DNA of 64,000 bases from Bacteroidaceae bacterium (GCA_045657945.1 JAZOUB010000041.1:43987-107986), one strand, 5' to 3'; positions 61,551-61,590 are shown, numbered from the stretch's first letter. Notes: generated by a model not told the origin, from the letters alone. Made by a program: numbers and translations.

Positions 61551-61590
61551 CAAAAATAAGTTTTTTTTTTGAAAAATCCCCCCCCCCCCC
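61551..61590 (-). promoter_or_regulatory. Putative promoter: -7 box TATTTTTG, 19-nt spacer containing A10, then G13 tract
   Basis: The plus strand reads CAAAAATA(61551-61558)-AG-T10(61561-61570)-GAAAAAT-C13(61578-61590). The ATG is at 61453. Confidence 0.45.

Follow-up and report, generated by a model that had tools for sequence, protein, structure and literature searches.

The promoter of a gene for an M60-like peptidase in a Bacteroidaceae bacterium carries two long homopolymers, a run of 13 G residues and a run of 10 A residues, just ahead of its -7 box. The question raised by this locus is whether the length of these runs changes and whether such changes could tune or switch transcription of the gene. 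The DNA analysed (the window) is a stretch of 64,000 nucleotides (GCA_045657945.1 JAZOUB010000041.1:43987-107986), and positions are counted from its first letter. An initial annotation of the window had described the double homopolymer and had proposed that slippage in it could affect both of the genes that flank it.

The M60 peptidase gene and its promoter

The gene headed by the tract (ORF 57521..61453, minus strand) encodes a secreted M60-like metallopeptidase of 1310 aa with a signal peptide and RicinB lectin, M60 and M60_C domains. The protein was matched by Pfam Peptidase_M60 (PF13402) with E = 9.3e-18 and also by M60_C and RicinB, and its HExxH zinc motif was found as HEIGH at residue 488. 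Among the matches listed, at least 120 homologs with 53-97% identity were named M60 family metallopeptidase (Bacteroidaceae bacterium). Mucin-type glycoproteins are substrates of M60-like peptidases; the window's protein is called mucinase-like by family, and mucin is its putative substrate. A second M60-like peptidase gene (54578-57370, 930 aa), in tandem with the first (57521-61453, 1310 aa) and likewise on the minus strand, has a TACTTTTG box of its own but no G run. Both M60 peptidases share a C-terminal motif (..YDLxGRxV..GIYIxxGKKxLVK) with a 586-aa protein and a C10 peptidase; the motif sites are at 57521-57610, 54578-54670, 33957-34050 and 15203-15290 of the window. By eye, the motif resembles a T9SS sorting tail. 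T9SS sorting-domain profiles (Pfam, NCBIfam) did not match it, and a 'T9SS cargo regulon' built on the visual resemblance was set aside and not used as evidence.

On the other side of the tract, a divergent gene (61814..64000, plus strand) runs off the window. Its product has a signal peptide and is about 1270-1280 aa long in relatives. No significant domain was found in it by profile search: the label 'discoidin-module' of the initial annotation corresponds only to a sub-threshold F5_F8_type_C_2 match (E = 0.065) and could not be upheld. The intergenic region between the two genes (61454..61813) is 360 bp long, as had been stated.

The minus strand was re-read base by base. From 5' to 3', the sequence TTTTGGCACTTTTTAAAAAATATATA is followed by G13 (61578..61590), the linker ATTTTTC with its T5 (61571..61577), A10 (61561..61570), CT and the -7 box TATTTTTG (61551..61558), and the ATG at 61453 comes 97 nt further on. 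This is the order that had been annotated. The spacer from the G run to the box is indeed 19 nt, 10 of which belong to the A run, and G13 is the longest homopolymer of the window according to a homopolymer scan. The tract does lie in the promoter of the M60 gene, ahead of a canonical -7 box. This box is of the sigma-ABfr type, TAnnTTTG (PMC7366714, PMC9723704), and stands at a suitable distance, 97 nt before the ATG. Because the -7 box of Bacteroidetes is taken to occupy -12..-5 (PMC9723704), the transcription start site (TSS) is placed at about 61546, which gives a predicted 5'UTR of 61454..61546 (minus strand). Relative to this putative TSS, G13 would cover about -44..-32, and A10 about -24..-15, in the spacer just 5' of the -7 box.

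No TTTG/TTG -33 element was found about 19-21 nt 5' of the -7 box of the M60 promoter. A 19-bp distance is the often-quoted optimum for -33/-7 spacing and was not used as evidence here. In the M60 promoter and in two other promoters of the window (P1 and P2, see below), the G run takes up the -33 position with its 3' end (GGGG), where orthologs have GGTG or GGTA. Phylum-wide, the -33 element is weak and the spacer is AT-rich and of variable length (PMC7366714). Since a TTTG -33 is absent, the claim of the initial annotation that A10 slippage alters the -33/-7 spacing depends on the G run making the -33 contact with its 3' end, and we regard this claim as weak.

Upstream of G13, a box TTTGGCAC-TTTTTAAAAAA (61597..61615, minus strand, about -69..-51) was recognized; it can also be written TTTGGCAC-TT-TTTAAA and is related to the TTTAACA-N3-TTTAAC boxes of P1 and P2 in alignment A1. 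A sigma-54 promoter, suggested by TGGCAC in this box, was rejected: TTGC is lacking at -12 spacing, and most orthologs do not have the box. The box lies in a conserved non-coding block of about 85 nt (61591..61675) that extends between the two divergent -7 boxes. This block shows almost no length change and is probably a shared regulatory region. The putative promoter of the divergent gene (61641..61671, plus strand) consists of TTG (61641-61643), N20 and a -7-like AACCTTTG (61664-61671), and these elements are kept in orthologs. Because the C run lies about 50 bp 5' of this putative -33, a direct effect of the tract on the divergent gene is doubtful, and the proposal that both genes are affected is likewise weak.

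The 5'UTR contains three 9-nt CCTTAGnnn units (61480-61510, minus strand) with a complementary CTAAGG before them, the whole covering 61480-61519; TRF reported a period of 9 and 3.4 copies. Locus L037 has four CCTTAG units (about 1390-1450), one more than the window, which makes this a second copy-number-variable repeat in the M60 regulatory region. An attenuator or riboswitch was considered and dropped, as no Rfam family matched the intergenic region and the 5'UTR folded no better than shuffled sequences (z -1.3).

G runs and a shared promoter layout

Three G/C runs of 7 or more are present in the window, whose G+C content is 48%: C10 (15153-15162), C7 (35784-35790) and C13 (61578-61590). Read on the minus strand, all of them are G runs, each located exactly 19 nt 5' of a TAnnTTTG box heading a minus-strand gene. 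Just 21 TAnnTTTG boxes exist on the minus strand of the window. The pattern G7-N19-TAnnTTTG was matched three times vs 0.00 expected from 100 dinucleotide shuffles. When the window and related loci were taken together (353 kb), 17 of the 18 G runs of 7 or more preceded a -7 box by 19-25 nt, and no G run of 6 or more was found outside these promoter sites in an additional 112 kb. G runs are therefore almost restricted to one promoter position in this lineage.

Promoter P1 (15126..15183, minus strand) is composed of TTTAACACCTTTTAAC (15183-15168), CAATC, G10 (15162-15153), N19 and TACATTTG (15133-15126), and drives the gene of an 81-aa lipoprotein (14851..15096). Promoter P2 (35757..35811, minus strand) is composed of TTTAACATTATTTAAC (35811-35796), TAAAT, G7 (35790-35784), N19 and TACATTTG (35764-35757), and drives the gene of the 586-aa secreted protein (33957..35717). 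The genes behind P1, P2 and the M60 promoter all encode secreted or surface proteins, the kind of protein that contingency loci usually concern. A direct repeat TTTAAC-N4-TTTAAC (TTTAACNNNNTTTAAC) is common to P1 and P2, 5 nt 5' of the G run. With up to one mismatch allowed, TTTAACNNNNTTTAAC has only these two sites in the window (0.36 expected), and among all fetched loci TTTAAC-N4-TTTAAC was found in P1 and P2 orthologs only. It was kept, together with G9, in a P2 ortholog that has 81% aa identity and a different upstream neighbour (L045/L046). The distance from the TTTAAC box to the -7 box is 31-36 nt in P1 and P2; because it varies, a strict phasing requirement is not evident. An ECF-sigma reading of the AAC in the TTTAAC boxes was rejected, the distance to the -7 box being at least 30 nt, far beyond ECF spacers.

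Several promoters of the window have in common a conserved upstream box with a homopolymer after it, as in the fim-type family, the M60 box being a related one. The best reading of this layout (upstream box, G stretch, -7 box) appears to be that of a conserved promoter class, and the upstream box is read as a putative regulator-binding or UP-like site. The initial annotation had treated the tract as a mutable accident. The G block is instead an ancestral, conserved part of the promoter class, usually 6-9 long and sometimes interrupted, and for this reason a static role in cis must be weighed too.

In L028, an IS element with HTH_Tnp_1 and rve ORFs (1554-2890) has landed exactly between the TTTAAC-N4-TTTAAC box of P1 and its G block, so that the two P1 modules are parted in one natural strain. 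A long imperfect CTAAGG/CCTTAG hairpin followed by a T run (window 35830-35930, minus strand) sits between a small membrane-protein gene and P2, and looks like a terminator built from a genome-specific repeat family. In L010, a G7 (1731-1737, minus strand) is followed 25 nt on by TAACTTTG; this site is downstream of a 1269-aa gene, has no convincing ORF after it and may be a promoter for a small RNA or a small protein. The tmRNA gene of the window was located at 16767-17164, minus strand (Rfam RF00023, 124 bits).

Length and position of the G block in orthologous promoters

Twenty M60 loci were taken from GTDB species representatives, which are MAGs labelled Bacteroidaceae bacterium from cattle, buffalo, yak, sheep and human gut. 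Five more, all in one assembly, were obtained by a conserved-pattern scan of metagenome contigs, and nine more by exact-protein look-ups of close homologs. Searching JGI metagenome contigs with exact flanks and variable gaps gave no match. In exact-protein look-ups, no record was found for the M60 protein in other assemblies, nor for the 586-aa protein or its 100%-identical NCBI version P0121, and the neighbouring 227-aa gene used as query returned only other species or contigs ending short of the promoter.

A common layout was found in 26 orthologous M60 promoters: the 85-nt block, which begins at the divergent promoter's -7-like box and has an A-rich end, then the G block, an AT-rich spacer with A5-A10 and a -7 box, which is TATATTTG or TATTTTTG in all orthologs. 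At this one site the G block ranges from 3 to 13 in length, with a mode of 7-8. The longest pure G run is 13 in the window, 12 in L023, 10 in L037, 9 in three loci, 8 in six, 7 in five and 6 in four. The block is cut to G5 in L043, interrupted in L003 (G3AG4) and L022 (G4AG3), and was read by eye as G5TGTG in L034. It has decayed in L010 and been lost in L007; L024 was also counted as decayed. The A run varies from A5 to A10 across species and is less extreme than the G block. MITE-like insertions (GCTTCGCTTTGCTCAGCATGACA ... TGTCATCCTGA..GGAAGGATC) were noticed between promoter and ATG in L002, L003, L006, L009, L022 and L035; they extend the M60 leader from about 70-100 nt to 140-440 nt. In L004 (1-161), the M60 leader is fused at the CCTTAG repeat to unrelated coding-like DNA and the entire promoter is missing, which points to a rearrangement, or else to a chimeric assembly, at this repeat.

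The closest relative among the matches listed, L037, is an independent SPAdes contig from a metagenome (ERZ28436077, about 5x coverage). Its M60 protein is 97% identical to that of the window at the aa level and the locus is 94.2% identical at the nt level over 5.6 kb, a value (94%) at which conspecific status is unproven. The promoter has G10/T6/A10 in L037 vs G13/T5/A10 in the window, with an upstream flank of at least 150 nt and the -7 box identical. Nearly all promoter differences between the two are changes in repeat length, while A10 has the same length in both. The polymorphism of the G run that had been expected was thus borne out by comparison, both by G13 vs G10 within identical flanks and by the range of 3-13 in the 26 orthologs. 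As at contingency loci, the flanks are conserved and the length is polymorphic among relatives (here L037, whose locus identity is only 94%), and a homopolymer of hypermutable length, G13, stands within the promoter as delimited by the putative TSS; for G/C homopolymers the threshold was set at about 8-9 or more.

Smaller differences were seen elsewhere. The arrangement is A7-T-G8 in L015 vs A9-T-G9 in L021 and L042. Eight contigs encoding an identical 81-aa protein have G5TG4, G6TG4 or G5AG4 at P1, vs G10 in the window; they belong to the same species, with 97.6-98.9% nt identity where measured (L026, L027, L030). Among the M60 promoters, three samples share an identical G6, and L008 and L025 share an identical G8; on this comparison short alleles look stable. 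L008 and L025, whose CDS are 99% identical, differ by T7 vs T9 directly before the M60 ATG. The region just 5' of the start codon influences translation initiation in Bacteroidetes.

Errors of assembly or sequencing could in principle account for the long alleles, G13 and A10 being miscalled and the true tract short and ordinary. Homopolymer lengths are error-prone on every platform, L037 is covered only about 5x and several contigs end near the promoter (L001, L035). The tract of the window, however, is internal with unique flanks on both sides, and over 25 independent assemblies, produced in different studies and with different assemblers, have a G block at this very position; long alleles (13, 12, 10) were seen three times independently. 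Because independent assemblies have G12/A9 (L023) and G10/A10 (L037) at the homologous site, the tract is considered real and not an invention of the assembly. Nor are the interruption alleles of P1 random miscalls, because each is linked to flanking SNPs, as real substitutions would be. An artefact of this kind is therefore very improbable, with the reservation that the exact count of 13 is assembly-derived and that assemblies can misstate the length of a homopolymer by a base or more.

The length of the G block and the length of the spacer between it and the -7 box are anticorrelated (r=-0.89, Spearman p=7e-6) over 19 unique alleles, which are pure G runs, the short remnants of L043 and L010 included; these alleles share ancestry and are not phylogenetically independent, and the anticorrelation may partly arise without selection, by substitution of adjacent bases that lengthens runs. 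The sum of G length and spacer is 30-34 nt with a mode of 32, each alone having an SD of about 2.2 in a region that holds three homopolymers. The start of the block is fixed at about 32 nt from the -7 box in the orthologous promoters. Over 20 loci, the upstream block has a mean pairwise identity of 85% and a length of 83-86 nt, vs identities of 83% (first 900 nt of the CDS) and 65% (spacer from the G block to the -7 box). A kept sum and a conserved block, next to a spacer sequence of only 65% identity, are an argument that the distance from the upstream block to the -7 box matters. The earlier statement that slippage in G13 shifts the upstream sequences is correct in this sense: the conserved upstream block is necessarily displaced relative to the core promoter.

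Proposed mechanism, rival readings and known systems

The reading that we favour, with a probability of about 0.55, is that of a promoter that could be tuned or switched by slippage of its G tract. Such a promoter would be made up of modules: an upstream block ending in a TTTRRCA-N3-TTTAAM box (about -69..-53), a G stretch from about -44, an AT-rich spacer with an A run, and TAnnTTTG. In this reading the G stretch is ancestral; it is normally 6-9 bp long and has been expanded to 10-13 bp in the lineage of the window. Tracts of G/C of 10-13 bp slip at high frequency in Campylobacter, Neisseria, Bordetella and Helicobacter, and a high rate of hypermutation is predicted for the G stretch of the window from its length. 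With each G gained or lost, the upstream block would change its distance from the -7 box and RNA polymerase and turn with respect to them, by about 34 degrees per bp. The M60 peptidase gene would then be transcribed more or less strongly, in a heritable yet reversible manner, as in a rheostat or an ON/OFF switch. The upstream block would act as an activator site or as a UP-like element. A10, which lies between the -7 box and the G stretch and varies less than the latter, would be a second site of slippage and could act likewise.

The same G block might also be a static element in cis, that is, a site contacted by a regulator or by sigma/alpha, or a rigid G:C island that insulates the A-tract/UP-like DNA from the core. 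Selection would then act on G-richness and position, lengths would drift neutrally or with mildly deleterious effect, and G13 would be an overgrown allele without switching. The persistence of a 6-9 norm in species with a CDS identity of only about 83%, the fixed start about 32 nt from the -7 box, the co-occurrence of the G block with a common upstream box in unrelated promoters and the identity of G6 in three samples all agree with this. So does the interruption, and hence stabilisation, of eight of nine P1 sequences. That interrupted alleles keep their block length (G5TG4, G5AG4, G4AG3, G3AG4) agrees with it too, but fits a mutable element equally. A fixed site would not be expected to vary from 3 to 13 G's, to be lost in L007 or to decay in L010 and L024 while gene and promoter are otherwise intact, and the changes between close relatives are concentrated in repeats. 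A tract of G10-13 is, moreover, mutable regardless of its original role. We hold the static element to be possible, at odds well short of even.

Inversion of the promoter as an inverton, with the homopolymers as incidental neighbours, was considered because 61420-61653 is flanked by an inverted repeat of 19 nt, which is 84% complementary and includes a perfect core of 11 nt (GCAAAGGTTGC). Its arms, however, are signal-peptide codons and the divergent -7-like box, each conserved for its own reason, and an inversion would remove the ATG and the first 11 codons. One and the same orientation was found in every orthologous contig spanning the promoter. This explanation is hardly credible.

Promoter homopolymers that act as contingency or rheostat loci are known from other bacteria, and the slippage-tuned promoter that we favour would be one of them; for this lineage and promoter type, no earlier description was found in the literature searched. 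Poly-G/C tracts are present in the promoters of porA, opc and fetA of Neisseria meningitidis, and TA repeats are present in the overlapping spacers of both divergent promoters of hifA/hifB of Haemophilus influenzae. Like hifA/hifB, which a review cites (PMC11868660), the M60 locus has a simple repeat in a region common to two divergent genes; a dual effect is unlikely here, unlike in hifA/hifB, because the tract is about 50 bp 5' of the putative -33 of the divergent gene. The Neisseria tract is placed between -35 and -10, whereas here the G run is at or upstream of -33 and A10 alone is in the spacer. In N. meningitidis, a poly-G/C tract that lies in the core promoter spacer or overlaps it is reported to alter the expression level of an outer-membrane protein (PMC3639595). 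These systems are more distant, and the fim promoters of Bordetella and sabA of H. pylori are the closest functional analogues.

In Bordetella fim promoters, a C-stretch separates the activator-binding region from the core (-10) element; its length (C7 to C19) is polymorphic among strains and sets how strongly a surface or secreted factor is transcribed (PMC1891110). Like fim2, fim3 and fimX of Bordetella pertussis/bronchiseptica, the M60 promoter has a conserved upstream box and, after it, a long G:C homopolymer. Unlike them, it belongs to another phylum and has a -7 TAnnTTTG without -10/-35, and in relatives its G tract is mostly short (6-9) and in some cases interrupted. The activator of the fim promoters is BvgA, whereas any activator of the M60 promoter is putative. 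In H. pylori sabA, the length of a T-tract shifts the axial alignment of UP-like DNA with respect to the core and sets promoter output (PMC4081817). Here as there, the homopolymer adjoins the upstream core element and several promoters per genome have the arrangement (PMC4081817). The tract of sabA is T/A, in a host without mismatch repair, whereas a G:C tract flanked by A runs is found here. Involvement of alpha-CTD/UP at the M60 promoter is a possibility.

Invertons of Bacteroidales bring surface and secreted functions, including host glycan use, under stochastic control, and a 2025 review of phase variation lists only invertase-mediated systems for Bacteroidales (PMC11868660). The M60 promoter would serve the same purpose in the same order, through slippage and not through site-specific inversion. 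A full-text literature search found no report of homopolymer-driven promoter variation for Bacteroides, Prevotella or Bacteroidota; for B. fragilis, a C4/C5 frameshift within a coding region has been the subject of speculation (PMC3090145).

We put forward only tentatively that the clade, which is uncultured and lives in the ruminant and human gut, uses this promoter class for secreted proteins, M60 mucinases included, with the G stretch as a slippage rheostat or switch. If this were true, a 'phasome' based on simple sequence repeats would exist in an order whose reported phase variation is inverton-mediated. With about one such promoter per 20 kb in the window, their number could be of the order of 100 per genome. 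If confirmed, it would also mean that metagenome pipelines looking only for invertons miss a layer of heritable expression heterogeneity. The layout of box, G stretch and -7 box may offer a model for upstream elements working with the unusual sigma factor of Bacteroidetes. Were the tuning of the M60 gene stochastic, subpopulations would differ in their attack on host mucus.
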